Source: a virus
Lineage: Duplodnaviria; Heunggongvirae; Uroviricota; Caudoviricetes
IMG/VR virus record: IMGVR_UViG_2700989476_000014
Length of the DNA stretch: 19,502 nucleotides
Reading direction: 5' to 3' (one strand)
The notes beneath the pieces are model-generated. The model was not told the DNA's origin and did no database searches. It was given only the letters and a program-made list of their open reading frames with translations. Shown piece by piece: positions 662 to 14,299 of this stretch (position 1 is its first letter; every line of letters starts with the position of its first letter). The position numbers and the translations under genes were made by a program.

Positions 662-665
662 GTCC

Positions 666-691
666 ATAAGAAAGCCCCTCCGGAGAGGGGC
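666..691 (-). terminator. Rho-independent terminator, minus-strand orientation (likely end of the tRNA transcription unit)
   Basis: GCCCCTC (674-680) / GAGGGGC (685-691) 7-bp stem with 4-nt loop; on the minus strand it is followed by TTTCTTAT. With 632-661 it forms a back-to-back terminator pair. Confidence 0.45.
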
Positions 692-928
692 TGGAGAGTG
701 GCGCTATGTGCCATTGCATGGTGCCGGGTGCCTCCCGGTGAATTCAGTACCAGCACCTGAATCCGCGATTATCCCATATAACTACTCGCTGATTGCCCCT
801 CCGCACAGGGGGATTCACCATGCCAGTTTCTTTTAACAAACTCCCCGCAAAACAGACAACTGTCAACCGTCTGAATTGTGAGACATTTAAAAAAAAGGCC
901 CGCAAAAGCGAGCCGGGAAAAATAAGTC

Positions 929-1005
929 TGGCGCGTTGTACTGGATTCGAACCAGTGACCGATTGCTTAGAAGGCAATTGCTCTGTCCGGCTGAGCTAAC
1001 AACGC
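929..1005 (-). tRNA. argO: tRNA-Arg (anticodon UCU, reads AGA/AGG)
   Basis: Minus-strand sequence GCGTTGTTAGCTCAGCCGGACAGAGCAATTGCCTTCTAAGCAATCGGTCACTGGTTCGAATCCAGTACAACGCGCCA: 7-bp acceptor stem, D-arm AGCTCAGCCGGACAGAGC, anticodon stem ATTGC/GCAAT with loop CTTCTAA (anticodon TCT), T-loop GGTTCGAATCC, 3' CCA encoded. Cloverleaf folded by hand, not by tRNAscan. Confidence 0.8.
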
Positions 1006-1018
1006 AGGGTACAGATAA

Positions 1019-1095
1019 TGGACCGCCATCGAGGACTCGAACCCCGCGCAACCAGCTTCGAAGGCTGGCGCTCTATCCCGATGAGCTAATGGCGG
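1019..1095 (-). tRNA. argN: tRNA-Arg (anticodon UCG)
   Basis: Minus-strand sequence CCGCCATTAGCTCATCGGGATAGAGCGCCAGCCTTCGAAGCTGGTTGCGCGGGGTTCGAGTCCTCGATGGCGGTCCA: anticodon stem CCAGC/GCTGG with loop CTTCGAA (anticodon TCG), T-loop GGTTCGAGTCC, 3' CCA encoded. Exact 5' end is +/- 1 nt. Confidence 0.75.
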
Positions 1096-1105
1096 TATGT
1101 GATAT

Positions 1106-1180
1106 GGTGGCCCTTGCTGGATTTGAACCAGCGACCTGGCGATTATGAGTCGCTCGCTCTCACCACTGAGCTAAAGTGCC
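1106..1180 (-). tRNA. ileZ: tRNA with CAU anticodon (Ile2-type/Met-like, as ileZ of lambdoid Stx phages)
   Basis: Minus-strand sequence GGCACTTTAGCTCAGTGGTGAGAGCGAGCGACTCATAATCGCCAGGTCGCTGGTTCAAATCCAGCAAGGGCCACCA: anticodon loop CTCATAA (anticodon CAT), T-loop GGTTCAAATCC, 3' CCA. One A:G mismatch in the acceptor stem. Ile versus Met identity cannot be decided from sequence alone. Confidence 0.7.
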
Positions 1181-9384: not shown

Positions 9385-9605
9385 GCTGCACCTCCGAGAT
9401 GCTTCATGTTTTTTCCGGAGCAAAAGGCTATAAGCGGCATACTGATGCGGTAATTACGGCCCAGCGGTTCACAAATCACCTTCTGACATTCACGGTCAAC
9501 CAGGCTAACACGTAGAACATGCCCTGCAGGCGTGGTGTACCACTGACCCGGACGAGGACAACGGAAAGTATGATTGGTAAACCGTTTGAAAATATTCCGG
9601 ATCAT
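9381..9605 (-). CDS. Hypothetical small protein (74 aa)
   Basis: ORF with ATGA overlaps to both the upstream Rha gene and the downstream O-like gene, which suggests it is translated. No family recognised. Confidence 0.4.
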   Translation of the reverse strand: MIRNIFKRFTNHTFRCPRPGQWYTTPAGHVLRVSLVDRECQKVICEPLGRNYRISMPLIAFCSGKNMKHLGGAA

Positions 9606-10147
9606 TTGCGCCCCCTTACCTCTGAAGGGTTCAGCGACAAATTTATGAGACTGGCCAGTAGCGCCGCGTCGTTGATGCGGTCATACAGACTTACAGCCAG
9701 CGGGGATTCGGCTTTTGCCAACATGGGATAAAGCTGCTGCAGCCAGACCTGATGAATTGATGAAATGTAGGAATAGAGAACGCTGGCGTTATGTGCAACG
9801 TCGCTCAGTACAGAGGGATTTGAAAGCTGTTTCTCCATCTGGTTAAAGGCATTGATGTATGCCTCTTTGAACCGGGCAGCACGTTTCCCCGTGAAGCCCA
9901 TGGCAAGAAACGCAAAACCGTCGCGGGTGATTTGGTAACAAGGGAGTTTGCGGCCTGTGCAATCGGTGTAATCACTGGGCTGAAAATTCAGCTCAGTGAA
10001 TTCAACAGAGCACTCAAGCGTCTGGATTTTTTGAATAACGTTTTTGTGCTGCTTGCAGAAATATTCGGCAACGGCCAAAGAAGAGGTAACAGCCTTCCCA
10101 TGGATAACATCAATTTTAGGGTGAGTTTGGGTAGGGGTGGTTGCCAT
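9602..10147 (-). CDS. Phage regulatory protein Rha (antirepressor-type)
   Basis: From the internal ATG at 10147-10145 (SD GAGGA 7 nt upstream): MATTPTQTHPKIDVIHGKAVTSSLAVAEYFCKQHKNVIQKIQTLE...YQITRDGFAFLAMGFTGKRAARFKEAYINAFNQMEKQL..., a typical Rha-domain sequence. The track ORF extends in frame to 10747 (381 aa). Confidence 0.75.
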   Translation of the reverse strand: MATTPTQTHPKIDVIHGKAVTSSLAVAEYFCKQHKNVIQKIQTLECSVEFTELNFQPSDYTDCTGRKLPCYQITRDGFAFLAMGFTGKRAARFKEAYINAFNQMEKQLSNPSVLSDVAHNASVLYSYISSIHQVWLQQLYPMLAKAESPLAVSLYDRINDAALLASLINLSLNPSEVRGRK

Positions 10148-10747
10148 AGTGACATCCTCATGTGCGAATTTTGAAAACTCACCACATGGGACGCCAATCA
10201 CAGAGGTGGTGAGACGTACAGGGTTGGCGTAACCGGTCGCACATGACCCCGGCGCATCTTTCGATGCCCCTGCACGCCCCACCATAATTTGGATGTGAGG
10301 AAACGTGCGCAAAAAAACCGCTGAAGCGCGGTTATGCGCATGTGCGAATTTCAGGACGCCAATCCCGGCACCCGCTTTATAAGGTGCCTGAACAGTGTAA
10401 CGTCCCGGAATTGCAGAATCAATATGCTGGTGGTCCTTCACACTCAACAAAATCACGCCTGAATTTCCACAAAGGACTAAAGCACTCATGCGGGTAGTCT
10501 TTGCGAAGATAGATAACGCGCTGTGTTTCTGGCTCCCAACGAATAACATGGACATAAAGCCCTCTTCCGTCACGAAACCAGCGGTTAAGTTCCTGCACAA
10601 CTCGCCCCCCACAGTCAGGTAAAGTTCTCTGTGGTTACTTACAGCCAGGTGATTTGGTAATCTGCATTCATGCCGTAACAACAGGTGTTCAGCGACGCTG
10701 ACCACCAGCTGTTGCGACAAACGGTTATTTGCCGTTAAACTATTCAT
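10148..10747 (-). other. In-frame 200-codon extension upstream of rha: either a fused N-terminal domain or a gene remnant; contains a terminator-like hairpin and a duplicated segment
   Basis: No stop codon over 200 codons; ATG 10747 overlaps the stop of the upstream gene (ATGA). It also contains a hairpin + T7 (minus-strand reading, ~10306-10330) and two copies of GATTGGCGTC...AAATTCGCACATG (10339-10364 and 10159-10199). The GNSG/DHQH/AHAH spacing is reminiscent of a degenerate metallophosphoesterase (weak). Confidence 0.3.
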
Positions 10748-11554: not shown

Positions 11555-11651
11555 ATAACCTCCACATATTGCGTGATGAGCATATTATTTCACGCAAATA
11601 TTTTGCGCAAGTTGATTTGCTTAACGCGCAATAAAGAAATGTAATAAACGC
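11555..11651. promoter_or_regulatory. Divergent PR/PRM-type promoter region with operator repeats (OR)
   Basis: 97-bp gap between divergent cro (-) and cI (+). Contains TTGCGTGA...TCACGCAA (11569-11597), the palindrome TTGCGCAA (11603-11610) and TTGC-N7-GCAA (11617-11631). The cI ATG at 11652 has no SD, consistent with a leaderless PRM-type transcript. Confidence 0.6.
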
Positions 11652-12344
11652 ATGAACATAGGAAACCGAGTCAGACAACTTCGCCAGGCGAAGAACATGA
11701 AAATCGCCGATCTCGCTGAAGCAATAGGAGTGGATGCGGCGAATATCTCACGCCTGGAAACAGGTAAGCAGAAACAATTCACTGAACAAGCCCTGAGTAA
11801 TATTGCCAGGAGCTTAGGTGTTGATATCGCTGATCTCTTTACCTCAGACGTCAAAAGTAATACTGTATGTAAAAACAGTATTGGTGAGGATGTTGCGCAG
11901 GTGAAGGATGTATTCCGTATTGAAATGCTGGATGTCAGTGCCAGTGCGGGAAATGGCCTTATCCAGGGCGGTGATGTCATTGATGTGATTCATGCCATTG
12001 AATACAGAACTGATAATGCTGTATCGATGTTTGGCGGACGGCCAGCCAATCACATTAAAGTTATCAACGTTCGTGGGGACAGTATGTGTCCAACCATTGA
12101 GCCAGGAGATCTCATCTTCGTTGATATCAGTATCAATCAGTTTGATGGGGATGGTATATATGTATTTGGTTTTGATGATAAAATTTACGTCAAACGACTG
12201 CAAATGATACCTGATAAACTGCTGGTAATTTCTGATAATCAGATTTACCGCGAATGGGGAATTACCAGCGAAAACGAACATCGGTTTATGGTCTTTGGAA
12301 AGGTCTTAATCAGTCAGTCACAAACCCTTAAGCGACACAATTAA
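11652..12344 (+). CDS. CI-type prophage repressor (XRE HTH + LexA/S24-like autopeptidase domain)
   Basis: 230 aa; N-terminal ...RVRQLRQAKNMKIADLAEAIGVDAANISRLETGKQ... (HTH) and C-terminal ...RGDSMCPTIEPGDLIFVD...KIYVKRLQM... (S24 Ser/Lys peptidase pattern). Confidence 0.9.
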   Translation: MNIGNRVRQLRQAKNMKIADLAEAIGVDAANISRLETGKQKQFTEQALSNIARSLGVDIADLFTSDVKSNTVCKNSIGEDVAQVKDVFRIEMLDVSASAGNGLIQGGDVIDVIHAIEYRTDNAVSMFGGRPANHIKVINVRGDSMCPTIEPGDLIFVDISINQFDGDGIYVFGFDDKIYVKRLQMIPDKLLVISDNQIYREWGITSENEHRFMVFGKVLISQSQTLKRHN

Positions 12345-12364
12345 CCCCTACCTCAACATCAATT

Positions 12365-12388
12365 AGCCACCAGAAGGTGGCTTTTCAT
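12365..12388 (+). terminator. Rho-independent terminator after cI
   Basis: AGCCACC-AGAA-GGTGGCT 7-bp stem followed by TTTTCATTA. Confidence 0.5.
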
Positions 12389-12399
12389 TACCCACCAAA

Positions 12400-12438
12400 T
12401 TGCATATCTCGCAATAAAAACACTTGCATAATGCGCAA
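12400..12438. promoter_or_regulatory. Candidate OL operators / pL region
   Basis: Two perfect TTGC-N7-GCAA sites (12400-12414 TTGCATATCTCGCAA; 12424-12438 TTGCATAATGCGCAA) 24 bp apart, the same motif as at 11617-11631 in OR; located just upstream of the plus-strand early-left genes. Confidence 0.5.
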
Positions 12439-12899
12439 CTTCATTTTATCTTTCTTTCCAGACATACAAACAAGGTACTAACAAAATTTGGTTGTAACAC
12501 GGCGTATGGCACATGCGTCGTTAGCGGTCTGGTGACGTTAAAGGGGACAATCCACTCCTTGCTCGGGCAAACAAACCAGGTAGCCGGAATGTGCAAGTCA
12601 ATGATGATGCTGATAAGACGCCTAACCAGCGTGGCGATCCGGTTTGACGCCTGGGAAGAGACCAGGGTGCAACGATGAGGGCATTTATGGAACCGCGACA
12701 AAGTGTGGTGCCGTAACTGGCTAAGTGCTCTCAGCGTTGTGGTAATCCGCGAAATGGCGCGGCGGTAAGTATGGCGGGGTTACTCTTTCCCCGTTGAGGA
12801 CACCGGATTGTCAGGTTGACCATACGCCTGAGTGACAACCCCACCACAACAGCCACTGCTTTGGCGGTACCAGTTTGTACCCTTGCTTCCGGCTGGTAC

Positions 12900-13026
12900 C
12901 GCTCTTTTTACAAAACAGAGAAGAGCATCACCGGACGACGGGCTCATAACCCAATCCATCCGGGCGGCTGTCACCGCAGGTGTTCTTCTCTGTTTTGTGG
13001 AGAAACCAACCGACCTTGCAGGGTCG
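12900..13026 (+). promoter_or_regulatory. Structured leader of the early-left operon: boxA-like element plus long inverted repeat and second hairpin (candidate nutL-like/antitermination or attenuator RNA)
   Basis: CGCTCTTTTTACAA (12900-12913) resembles boxA (GCTCTTTAACAA). A 15-bp perfect inverted repeat ACAAAACAGAGAAGA (12910-12924) / TCTTCTCTGTTTTGT (12984-12998) is followed by the hairpin CCGACC-TTGCAG-GGTCGG (13009-13026) just before the SD of the next gene. Confidence 0.35.
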
Positions 13027-13046
13027 GTATGATGAGGAGCAGCAAA

Positions 13047-13409
13047 ATGGCTAGCGTACGCAGTACTGATGTGCAGGTATTTATCGTAGAACTGGACGGC
13101 GGCGTATTTGAAACCAAACTCGGCGCAGTTCTCAGTGAAGTCGCTTCCGGTGTGATGAACACGAAAAACAAAGGTAAAGTCTCGGTCAATCTGGACATCG
13201 AACCGTTTGATGAGAACCGTGTGAAAATCAAACACAAACTCTCATATGTTCGCCCGACTAACCGCGGGAAAATCTCCGAAGAAGACACCACCGAAACGCC
13301 GATGTATGTCAATCGAGGTGGTCGCCTGACTATTCTGCAGGAAGACCAGGGACAATTACTGACTCTTGCCGGTGAACCTGACGGAAAACTCCGCGCAGCA
13401 GGTCATTAA
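13047..13409 (+). CDS. Hypothetical early-left protein (120 aa; YfdP-sized)
   Basis: Track ORF 12816..13409; I prefer ATG 13047 (MASVRSTDVQVFIVELDGG...) with SD GAGGAG 7 nt upstream, because the upstream part of the long ORF overlaps the structured leader and looks non-coding. Confidence 0.6.
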   Translation: MASVRSTDVQVFIVELDGGVFETKLGAVLSEVASGVMNTKNKGKVSVNLDIEPFDENRVKIKHKLSYVRPTNRGKISEEDTTETPMYVNRGGRLTILQEDQGQLLTLAGEPDGKLRAAGH

Positions 13410-13474: not shown

Positions 13475-14299
13475 ATGTCTCAGAACTTAGACGCAACCGC
13501 AATTAATCAAATCCATGCCCTTATTTCTGCTCAGGGTGTTAATGAAATTATCAGTAAGATTGGTGCCGATGCTGTGGCATTGCCTGAGAATTTCCGCATT
13601 CATGATCTGGAAAAATTTAATTTAAATCGCTTCCGTTTCCGTGGTGCGCTTTCCACTGCCAGCATCGATGACTTTACCCGTTATTCTAAAGATCTTGCAG
13701 ATGAAGGCACCCGCTGCTTTATCGATGCCGATAATATGCGTGCCGTCAGTGTGCTTAACCTGGGTACTATTGGTGAACCAGGTCACGCAGATAACACCGC
13801 CACACTCAAACTGAAAAAGACAGCACCGTTCTCTGCTCTGTTGTCTGTTAACGGCGAGCGTAACTCCCAGAAGTCACTGGCAGAATGGATTGAAGACTGG
13901 GCCGACTATCTTGTGGGCTTTGATGCTAATGGTGACGCTATTAAGGCAACAAAAGCGGCTGCGGCAGTCCGTAAAATCACGATTGAAGCAAACCAGACCG
14001 CTGATTTTGAAGATAATGACTTCAGCGGCAAACGCTCTTTGATGGAGTCTGTCGAAGCGAAAACCAAAGACATTATGCCAGTAGCATTTGAGTTTAAATG
14101 CGTTCCGTTTGAAGGCCTGAAAGAACGTCCGTTTAAATTACGCCTCAGCATTATCACTGGTGATCGCCCTGTACTGGTTCTGCGCATTATTCAGCTGGAA
14201 GCGGTGCAGGAAGATATGGCTAACGAATTTCGTGATCTGCTTGTTGAGAAATTCAAAGACAGCAAAGTAGAAACCTTTATTGGTACTTTCACCGCCTGA
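13475..14299 (+). CDS. yfdQ: YfdQ-like protein (DUF2303 family)
   Basis: 274-aa ORF with an SD (GTGAGGA) upstream; length and gene context (followed by HD-domain and DUF551 genes) match yfdQ of the CPS-53/KplE1 prophage as I recall it. Confidence 0.7.

Follow-up and report, generated by a model that had tools for sequence, protein, structure and literature searches.

A mosaic of four separately conserved RNA modules in the early-left leader of an Escherichia coli lambdoid prophage

We analyzed the long untranslated region in front of the early-left operon in a 19,502-nt stretch of DNA from a tailed phage (Caudoviricetes; IMG/VR record IMGVR_UViG_2700989476_000014), hereafter the window, numbered from its first letter. 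A prophage of E. coli FORC_069 matches this leader and the flanking DNA with 100% identity, and the identity reaches 98.5% with phages PhiR47_1, PhiR40_1 and PhiR55_1 and about 90% with mEp460 (BLAST). The genes follow a lambdoid order: a cro-like gene and the ymfL and Rha genes lie on the minus strand, followed on the plus strand by a CI-type repressor gene, the leader and the early-left genes, which from position 13047 are yfdP, yfdQ, yfdR and further genes and then xis and int. The plus strand of the window thus corresponds to the leftward direction of lambda, and "early-left leader" is the correct frame for the region. We found that the leader is a mosaic of four RNA modules, designated A, C, T and D, each of which is conserved separately. 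The feature exists and is conserved. Part of it is already known, as small RNA (sRNA) sRNA-17 and as the precursor of DicF, and its pseudoknotted module A is undescribed and widely distributed. The features of the locus are as follows.

11652–12344, plus strand: CI-type prophage repressor gene, marking the immunity region (open reading frame, ORF, of 230 amino acids; XRE family regulator in RefSeq)
12365–12382, plus strand: intrinsic terminator-like hairpin closing the repressor transcript (stem of 7 pairs, loop of 4, then TTTTCATT)
12400–12452, plus strand: putative OL operators and pL promoter (palindromes at 12400–12414 and 12424–12438; −35 TTGCAT at 12424–12429; −10 TATCTT at 12447–12452)
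12493–12679, plus strand: core of module A, a conserved pseudoknotted RNA (38-sequence alignment, covariance model)
Within this core, plus strand: helices P1 (12500–12507/12513–12520), P2 (12528–12532/12576–12580), P4 (12618–12621/12629–12632) and P5 (12650–12654/12662–12666)
Also within this core, plus strand: pseudoknot between the P4 loop (12624–12627) and 12641–12644, the downstream partner being the GGUK segment
12669–12739, plus strand: helix H (5' strand GCAACGAUGAGGGCA at 12669–12683, 3' strand UGCUCUCAGCGUUG at 12726–12739, variable insert at 12684–12725)
12736–12850, plus strand: module C, cloverleaf-like (closing helix GUUGUGGU/ACCACAAC, 12736–12743/12843–12850)
12747–12762, 12775–12793 and 12805–12841, plus strand: hairpins of module C, the last with a conserved 19-nt loop, GGUUGACCAUACGCCUGAG
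12735–12908, plus strand: local equivalent of sRNA-17, comprising modules C and T (from the published primers and alignment: CGTTGTGG at 12735, ...CTCTTTT at 12908)
12851–12909, plus strand: module T, a single-stranded segment, AGCCACUGCUUU, followed by an intrinsic terminator
12864–12909, plus strand: terminator of module T (perfect 10-bp inverted repeat, GCGGUACCAG at 12864–12873 and CUGGUACCGC at 12893–12902; U-tract at 12903–12909)
12910–12998, plus strand: long hairpin of module D (18 bp, 12910–12927/12981–12998, extending to about 25 bp; branched apical region)
12999–13010, plus strand: conserved segment GGAGAAACYAAC
13011–13026, plus strand: small hairpin with a UGCAG loop, ahead of the Shine-Dalgarno (SD) sequence GAGGAG at 13034–13039
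13047–13409, plus strand: first early-left gene, YfdP-type (RefSeq annotation of the FORC_069 prophage; RefSeq start at ATG 13047)
13475–14299, plus strand: yfdQ (RefSeq; Pfam DUF2303)

The repressor ORF matches the PHROG family of transcriptional/CI-like repressors (E 2e-62), and the first early-left products, YfdP and YfdQ, match PHROG 204 and 210, both of unknown function. A terminator is annotated in phage SfII at the place equivalent to 12365–12382. The operator-like palindromes, TTGCATATCTCGCAA at 12400–12414 and TTGCATAATGCGCAA at 12424–12438, are of the form TTGC-N7-GCAA, which recurs in the cro-cI spacer at 11569, 11617 and nearby. From the positions of the putative −35 and −10 elements, transcription from pL would start near 12459; a consensus promoter scan did not list pL (12424–12452) among its promoters. 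The untranslated stretch from this predicted start to ATG 13047 is about 588 nt, close to the roughly 600 nt given in the initial annotation, which was made from the sequence without database searches.

To trace the parts of the leader, BLAST comparisons with phages, plasmids and 5426 complete E. coli genomes were made. They split it into blocks of differing distribution, with separate sub-matches for each module, so that the interval, which the initial annotation had treated as one leader, consists of separately conserved pieces. Phage P1, P1-like plasmids, Klebsiella phages and epsilon15-like Uetakeviruses (phiV10, SPN1S, Tyrion) contain the block 12486–12745, which is unannotated in all of them. 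The block 12736–12858 is found in Qin-like prophages, and the block 12842–13060 precedes yfdP as well as other genes and lies under the annotated "ymfH" in e14. Parts of the leader are present in 4856 of the 5426 genomes, and at least 80% of it in 1130.

The fold of 12450–13050 is more stable than that of shuffled sequences on the plus strand (z = −5.1) and nearly as much so on the minus strand (z = −4.6); folding energy by itself therefore cannot assign the strand, which is given as plus by G-U pairs and by covariance model matches. Helices of modules A, C and D and helix H are retained in relatives through compensatory changes, so the folding and covariation check proposed with the initial annotation came out in favor of a structured RNA. 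Rfam searches covered the window and seven loci with the gathering cutoffs and, more permissively (up to E = 10), the leader and a Qin-like locus, and at neither level was a match obtained for modules A, C or D; the DicF model (RF00039) likewise had no match in 12300–13150 up to E = 10, and the relation to DicF described below was seen by alignment. A "closing helix" of the minimum free energy (MFE) structure, GGCGUAUGG/CCAUACGCC (12501–12509/12820–12828), was rejected. It competes with the covarying P1 hairpin of module A, shows no covariation in P1, and has a loop equally conserved in Qin prophages without module A; by our estimate chance alone would give a complement of 9 nt about 0.7 times in a stretch of 600 nt.

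For module A, a pattern scan of IMG/VR with an invariant 18-mer gave 120 loci, and an alignment was built from 38 of these sequences that share 93% identity or less. In this alignment 95.4% of the cells are paired and 12 pairs are changed on both sides. The covariation score is 0.272, compared with 0.124 in shuffled alignments, none of 500 of which reaches it, and at most 0.077 in slid controls. The pseudoknot covaries as well, one of its pairs switching from A-U to C-G without exception. A stretch of 19 bases, GGUAGCCGGAAUGUGCAAG at 12579–12597, is invariant. The covariance model built from the alignment, R1, finds module A in the window with 150 bits, on the plus strand only and as a single copy. 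No antisense targets of the invariant segments were found within the window. RNAalifold proposed in addition a long-range pairing, GCACAU/AUGUGC, in which both sides are invariant; it was kept only as a possible second pseudoknot with the loop of helix P1.

It should be mentioned that the loop of the P5 hairpin (CCUGG-GAAGAGA-CCAGG, 12650–12666) is purine-rich and almost invariant, and we take its shape to recall that of lambda boxB (GCCCU-GAAGA-AGGGC). At the equivalent place Qin-like prophages have CCCUG-AAAAGU-CAGGG.

The core is joined to module C by helix H, an irregular stem of about 15 bp enclosing inserts that range from 40 to about 190 nt. Its two strands co-vary between types, as in the pairs CAACAGGUAAGAGCA/UGCUCUUUCCGUUG, CAACAUGAGAGCGCA/UGCGCUCCCAGUUG and CAAUCAAAGAGCG/CGCUCUUUUUGAUUG, and duplexes of matched strands are more stable on average (−21.7 kcal/mol) than mismatched ones (−15.9 kcal/mol). 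In epsilon15-like phages the helix terminates exactly on the first base of a tRNA-Arg gene. The inserts of three loci (L009, about 2120–2225; L100; L104) contain T-arm-like motifs, GGTTCAATTCC and GGTTCGATTCC, adjoining the 3' strand. These modules may therefore derive from tRNAs or imitate them, although ARAGORN called no tRNA in these inserts. A likeness of helix H to the specificity domain of RNase P RNA was discarded, as local alignments of four variants with E. coli rnpB scored no higher than shuffled sequences.

Module A occurs in very different surroundings. In P1-like elements it starts directly after tRNA-Ile(CAU) and ban is the next gene; in P1 itself it was found with 140 bits (AF234173, 70698–70891; L007, 2501–2701) in the unannotated 280 bp between trnI and ban. 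In the other contexts, which represent at least seven immunity groups, the core begins 5–60 nt past a predicted promoter start, downstream of a CI-type repressor gene and its terminator. In seven unrelated contexts whose neighbors were checked, five repressors have a helix-turn-helix (HTH) domain with Peptidase_S24 and two have HTH only. In the window the core begins about 35–40 nt past the putative pL start and has the terminator of module T ahead of it. What follows the core depends on the phage and may be a tRNA, a cloverleaf module, an ORF or a terminator.

Genome contigs were surveyed with a 15-mer, which proved too short, and R1 was then applied to 27 sources including 12 of the returned loci. 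Among these 27 sources true copies of module A were confined to five enterobacterial loci, from Kosakonia (two), Phytobacter, Superficieibacter and E. whittamii; most of the other 15-mer loci come from unrelated taxa. In phage SfII (L006, 2540–3320) operators and promoter are still in place, along with roughly 60 nt at the start of the leader and modules T and D, with most of modules A and C swapped for unrelated DNA carrying an ORF on the opposite strand. The core is thus dispensable for at least one functional phage of the group. Literature searches gave nothing relevant on an RNA between trnI and ban of P1 or on tRNA-like processing of DicF.

From these comparisons we regard module A as a candidate new RNA family, absent from Rfam and common to P1, epsilon15-like and lambdoid phages. 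Our leading guess is that it represents an autonomous stable RNA, or a leader domain that acts without a phage-specific partner, because a tRNA forms its border in two of the phage groups (tRNA-Ile in P1, tRNA-Arg in epsilon15-like phages) and because seven CI-type repressor cassettes, unrelated to one another, have it immediately behind their promoters.

Module C, the next in the chain, folds at MFE into a four-way junction, and 94% of the cells of its alignment are paired. It is about 90% identical to the sequence directly 5' of DicF in Qin-like prophages, where the Rfam DicF match (76.9 bits) begins 10 nt past the end of the module C match. It is also recognizable, together with a terminator, in the annotated "dicF-like region" of P1 (AF234173, 68472–68573; L007, 282–383); the ban operon of P1 holds this region and module A in reverse order relative to the window. 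In epsilon15-like phages tRNA-Arg sits exactly where module C sits here; neither ARAGORN nor the Rfam tRNA model detected a tRNA at module C. Helix H with its 3' strand (CGUUG) and the closing helix of module C with its 5' strand (GUUGUGGU) share four bases, GUUG at 12736–12739; the two helices either compete or are stacked end to end. It is at this overlap that the 5' end published for sRNA-17 is located.

Module T folds with −21.5 kcal/mol (z = −3.2) and has the sequence anatomy of an intrinsic terminator, a GC-rich 10-bp stem directly followed by UCUUUUU; the terminator scan did not list it owing to the long, 19-nt loop. It occupies the position of DicF, with which the alignment revealed a common UUUGGCGGUAYCAGUUU (the start of the DicF hairpin) and the same position of the terminator. 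The segment that forms the seed of DicF has been lost or substituted here (AGCCACUGCUUU versus UUCUGGUGACAUUU), so that the seed pairing with ftsZ, xylR and other targets is lacking. Across phages this position is taken by variable single-stranded segments followed by a GGCGG...CCGCC-U terminator.

In Qin, DicF is reported as a terminated form of 53 nt and as a form of 72 nt that results from read-through and cutting by RNase III, the 5' end being made by RNase E (PMC5069750). Model R1 found no module A in the Qin-like locus; as the homologous terminator is nevertheless read through there, module A is not required for read-through. A sub-threshold relative of STnc100 RNA (33.6 bits, E 1.3e-5) separates DicF from dicB in one Qin-like prophage, that of E. 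coli O157 AR-0430 (L004, 3198–3347). The dicBF leader would accordingly be a chain of modules as well, consisting of a P5-like hairpin, an H-like helix, module C, DicF and an STnc100-like element.

The link to a known RNA came from the work of Sun et al. (2020; PMC7719688), who detected the 193-nt sRNA-17 by rapid amplification of cDNA ends (RACE) and Northern hybridization in the mEp460-type prophage of E. coli K1 RS218. In mEp460 the published primers enclose 194 nt, and the plus strand of the window is the one to which the probe used for Northern hybridization is antisense. Mapping of the primers showed that modules C and T have the same ends and the same locus as the RACE-mapped RNA; over the full length the two differ, because the internal module is of Qin type here and of mEp460 type in RS218. 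A window-type sequence is among the rows of "degenerative sRNA-17" in the supplementary alignment of these authors (PMC7719688). The alignment evidence thus supports C+T as the local version of sRNA-17 and a relative of the DicF precursor, which bears out the riboregulator or small RNA proposed as one option in the initial annotation. The "promoter" fragment of sRNA-17 used by these authors maps to 12486–12735, that is, to module A, and their quantitative reverse-transcription PCR (qRT-PCR) amplicon maps to 12486–12861, which indicates that module A is transcribed in one piece with module C. In the wild-type RS218 lysogen yfdP counts are near zero while sRNA-17 is visible (PMC7719688), which fits efficient termination. 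In the deletion strain, which kept the chloramphenicol cassette, yfdP rose 95-fold and yfdR rose as well (PMC7719688); as both genes lie immediately downstream of the cassette, the rise is most simply a polar effect.

Module D is the last of the leader, whose final 150 nt fold with z = −6.6. Its inverted repeat was described in the initial annotation as 15 perfect base pairs enclosing 59 nt, and this is what is present (12910–12924/12984–12998), the arms of 25 nt being complementary at 84%. The refuting condition named in the initial annotation, absence of this repeat from related phages, does not apply, as it is kept in relatives and covaries: in 13 sequences 96.6% of the cells of the long helix are paired and four pairs are changed on both sides. 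The GC hairpin noted at the SD sequence is also there, at 13009–13028 (13011–13026 for the hairpin as listed above). Its stem varies in sequence with pairing and the UGCAG loop kept, four of its five pairs being changed on both sides; GGAGAAACYAAC and the UGCAG loop are constant among relatives. Over the whole module, in the same 13 sequences, eight pairs are changed on both sides, 95.6% of the cells are paired, and none of 500 shuffles reaches the score. Module D precedes at least five different first genes.

A 66-codon ORF (12832–13032, plus strand) overlapping this region matches PHROG 33599, of unknown function, with E 6e-18; the small ORFs of the leader had no other meaningful family match. 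PHROG 33599 and the "hypothetical protein" calls in mEp460, cdtI and STEC phages (those of Shiga toxin-producing E. coli), and probably ymfH of e14 in K-12, overlap modules T and D. Such annotations are likely to be ORF calls on structured RNA. The PHROG 33599 ORF was rejected as coding, the frame being lost in variants that keep the RNA stem.

On balance, we favor the reading that in this N-less lambdoid prophage, of SfV/mEp460 type, the leader is the promoter-proximal non-coding portion of the early-left transcript and serves both as a precursor of several RNAs and as a leaky attenuator. It builds on the modules, the covarying helices, the homology with the sRNA-17 and DicF loci and the anatomy of the terminator, all observed here, and on two published facts, the accumulation of the C+T RNA (PMC7719688) and the dual fate, termination or read-through, at the homologous DicF terminator (PMC5069750). 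Transcription would begin at pL near 12459 and, in the lysogen, possibly also by read-through of the repressor transcript. Module A (core and helix H), module C and the DicF-like intrinsic terminator would be synthesized in this order, and most transcripts would stop at about 12909. A cut at the boundary of A and C (12735–12739), which coincides with the published 5' end of sRNA-17 and in epsilon15-like phages with position +1 of the tRNA, would free an A+H RNA of about 250–280 nt and a C+T RNA of about 175 nt, of sRNA-17 type; a DicF-sized 3' fragment may arise too. A minority of transcripts would read through the terminator, whose 19-nt loop and interrupted U-tract may make it leaky. These RNAs would carry module D, where the long hairpin may serve as a processing site of RNase III type and, together with the small hairpin adjoining the SD sequence, would set the stability and translation of the first gene.

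Several points weigh against this reading. The start at pL is predicted from sequence only. The authors of the sRNA-17 study read its 5' end as a transcription start, with an ArcA-bound promoter inside module A, and their RACE gave no separation of primary from processed ends (PMC7719688). This 5' end lies 4 nt upstream of the cut predicted for an RNase P-type activity. The covariation of module C is thin, with four pairs changed on both sides, a number that 57 of 500 shuffles reach. The rise of yfdP in the deletion strain is uninterpretable, as the chloramphenicol cassette was left in place. Finally, the reading assigns module A no mechanism, though 19 invariant bases and a pseudoknot indicate a specific partner.

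An explanation that we consider unlikely but worth weighing is that module A is an RNA-only, put-like processive antiterminator, as the initial annotation had also proposed. Its core would bind RNA polymerase in cis, replace N, and allow the enzyme to pass the DicF-type terminator and Rho-dependent stops in the long untranslated leader. The positional part of this proposal held: the core is promoter-proximal behind CI-type repressors, as described above for at least seven immunity groups and 5–60 nt past the predicted start, the first ORF is in most contexts separated from it by an intrinsic terminator, and the carrier phages show no N gene in the early-left operon. The core also has long invariant single-stranded stretches in addition to the pseudoknot, and its occurrence in contexts without a common phage protein makes a host partner, for example RNA polymerase, plausible. 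However, the DicF-type terminator of P1 lies about 2 kb upstream of the core and not downstream of it, an SD sequence and an ORF directly follow the core in P1 and in locus L070, Qin-like prophages pass the homologous terminator without the core, SfII retains the operon with the core lost, and R1 had no match in the 22.5–34 kb region of HK022. Moreover, yfdP of RS218 is silent while core-containing transcripts are amplified (PMC7719688), which argues against constitutive read-through. In a broader form, we would regard it as doubtful that module A belongs to a new class of host-directed phage RNAs, acting either as such an antiterminator or by modifying the ribosome or RNA polymerase in some other way. 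If true, module A would replace N in the large N-less lambdoid group, would be used also by P1 (in the ban operon) and by epsilon15-like phages (in the tRNA-Arg moron), and would act via the invariant GGUAGCCGGAAUGUGCAAG segment and the pseudoknot. A riboswitch-like sensor controlling the downstream terminator seems considerably less probable. In its favor, module A is a complex, pseudoknotted and highly conserved 5' leader domain upstream of a terminator, and the GUUG overlap of helix H and module C makes alternative pairings possible. Yet a constant expression platform is absent, since the element after the core changes from phage to phage, as listed above; in the window the terminator is 185 nt past the core with an independently folding module between them, and there are no Rfam aptamer matches.

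The published interpretation, by which sRNA-17 is a gene in its own right, 12486–12739 is simply its promoter with DNA bound by ArcA, and any RNA structure is incidental, appears improbable to us, if somewhat less so than the sensor. Phosphorylated ArcA shifted the fragment in an electrophoretic mobility shift assay (EMSA), arcA and oxygen had 2–3-fold effects, and a plasmid with the equivalents of 12536–12908 complements (PMC7719688). Against it, the EMSA was run with 20–80 uM protein (PMC7719688). A promoter leaves unexplained the compensatory changes, the G-U pairs and the covarying pseudoknot shared by P1, epsilon15-like and lambdoid contexts, and the core occurs with no sRNA-17 after it, e.g., in front of ban in P1 and in L070. 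Furthermore, the qRT-PCR amplicon of the same authors starts at 12486, so this DNA is transcribed. An internal promoter could coexist with the RNA structure. The lambda-type nutL site (boxA and boxB) serving a divergent N encoded elsewhere, another option of the initial annotation, is largely refuted and hardly credible. The boxA-like string is present (CGCTCTTTTTACAA at 12900–12913) and in its first eight bases resembles the boxA consensus; the P5 hairpin is similar in shape to the boxB hairpin of lambda nutL. But this string is the 3' arm of the terminator with its U-tract and is not conserved, relatives having CGCCC, CGTCC, CGACC or CGCTA before the T-run. The bases after it form the 5' arm of the 18–25 bp stem of module D and no boxB hairpin, and P5 stands before the string (250 nt upstream) instead of after it and has a 7-nt loop. 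The absence of an Arg-rich N-like ORF noted at the outset was confirmed, no 15-residue window with at least five Arg being found in any frame of 12380–13060, and the early-left genes are of YfdP/YfdQ/YfdR type. No more credible is the idea that the leader encodes small proteins such as the 66-codon product, despite the PHROG 33599 match and a frame that is open in most variants. Its GTG start lies inside a hairpin of module C and the ORF crosses the terminator, insertions that are not multiples of three shift the C-terminal half in L079 and L159 with the RNA stem kept, the stem has compensatory changes, and PHROG 33599 itself, without known function, probably stems from automatic ORF calls.

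These data describe the early-left organization of a very common E. coli prophage family, in which there is no N or nut and the first gene is preceded by a series of structured RNAs that includes a DicF-type terminator. At least 80% of this leader is present in roughly one in five complete E. coli genomes, Stx2a, Stx2c and cdt phages being among its carriers. Module A is common to three very different phage groups, among them P1, where the trnI-ban sequence has been without annotation, and its function is directly testable in P1 or mEp460. The virulence-linked sRNA-17 may be reinterpreted accordingly: its "promoter" would be a conserved RNA and its 5' end probably a processing site, while the reported "targets" yfdP and yfdR are the genes immediately downstream of the inserted cassette. 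It can be proposed that DicF, sRNA-17, the "dicF-like region" of P1 and STnc100-like elements are joined in one modular phage RNA system bounded by tRNAs or tRNA-shaped modules.

Other structured RNAs were revealed elsewhere in the window. Rfam detected C4 antisense RNA (75 bits, 10202–10289, minus strand) and isrK (62 bits, 10311–10387, minus strand), which adjoin the upstream side of a Rha-family antirepressor-like gene (9602–10747, minus strand); the same pair is present in mEp460. The rightward arm therefore appears to carry an RNA-controlled antirepressor module of the P1/P7 immI type. In addition, an STnc100 RNA (140 bits, 662–852, minus strand) is located directly downstream of three tRNA genes, Met-CAT, Arg-TCG and Arg-TCT (929–1180, minus strand).

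Comparison with known systems places the leader among several of them. STnc100 (RF02076) is likewise a phage-borne multi-hairpin RNA with a ...GGUG/CACC... closing helix and a location near tRNAs; the likeness of module C to it is architectural only, and module C did not match its Rfam model. The C4 RNA of P1/P7 and the CI RNA of P4 (RF01695 clan), processed by RNase P, are regulatory RNAs cut from a leader at tRNA-like helices. The window prophage has its own C4 RNA and isrK elsewhere, and the A/C junction is a real tRNA 5' end in epsilon15-like phages; modules A and C showed no sequence or model match to this clan, and ARAGORN found no tRNA there. The likeness to put of HK022 is positional, both being cis RNAs after an early promoter in a lambdoid phage without functional N and with terminators ahead. 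HK022 put consists of two stem-loops of about 70 nt; module A, in contrast, comprises about 175–250 nt with four helices and a pseudoknot. R1 had no match in the HK022 immunity region (22.5–34 kb), the put sequences themselves being neither located nor aligned.

The closest counterparts are sRNA-17 and DicF. sRNA-17 of RS218 lies at the same locus between the repressor gene and yfdP, on the same strand, and has the same 5' sequence, CGTTGTGG, and the terminator hairpin. Its body differs, since the window has the Qin-type cloverleaf module (174 nt) and RS218 and mEp460 another one (193 nt), and the upstream 250 bp, a promoter for the authors, are a conserved structured RNA here. The dicBF operon of Qin (RF00039; PMC5069750) likewise has an sRNA hairpin and terminator in the untranslated early-left part, after a cloverleaf module about 90% identical to that of the window. 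The 5' seed of DicF, UUCUGGUGAC, is replaced in the window by AGCCACUGC, the terminator of the window has a perfect 10-bp stem and a 19-nt loop and is unmatched by the Rfam DicF model, and Qin has ydfABC upstream and no module A. With the pL leader of lambda the window shares the general layout, that is, a repressor gene, OL/pL, a long structured leader and then the first early-left gene; it differs in having no conserved boxA, no boxB after it and no N, and in the intrinsic terminator and sRNA modules embedded in it. In lambda a large RNase III-sensitive hairpin lies just upstream of the SD sequence, in the N leader, and to this hairpin module D presumably corresponds in both position and shape.

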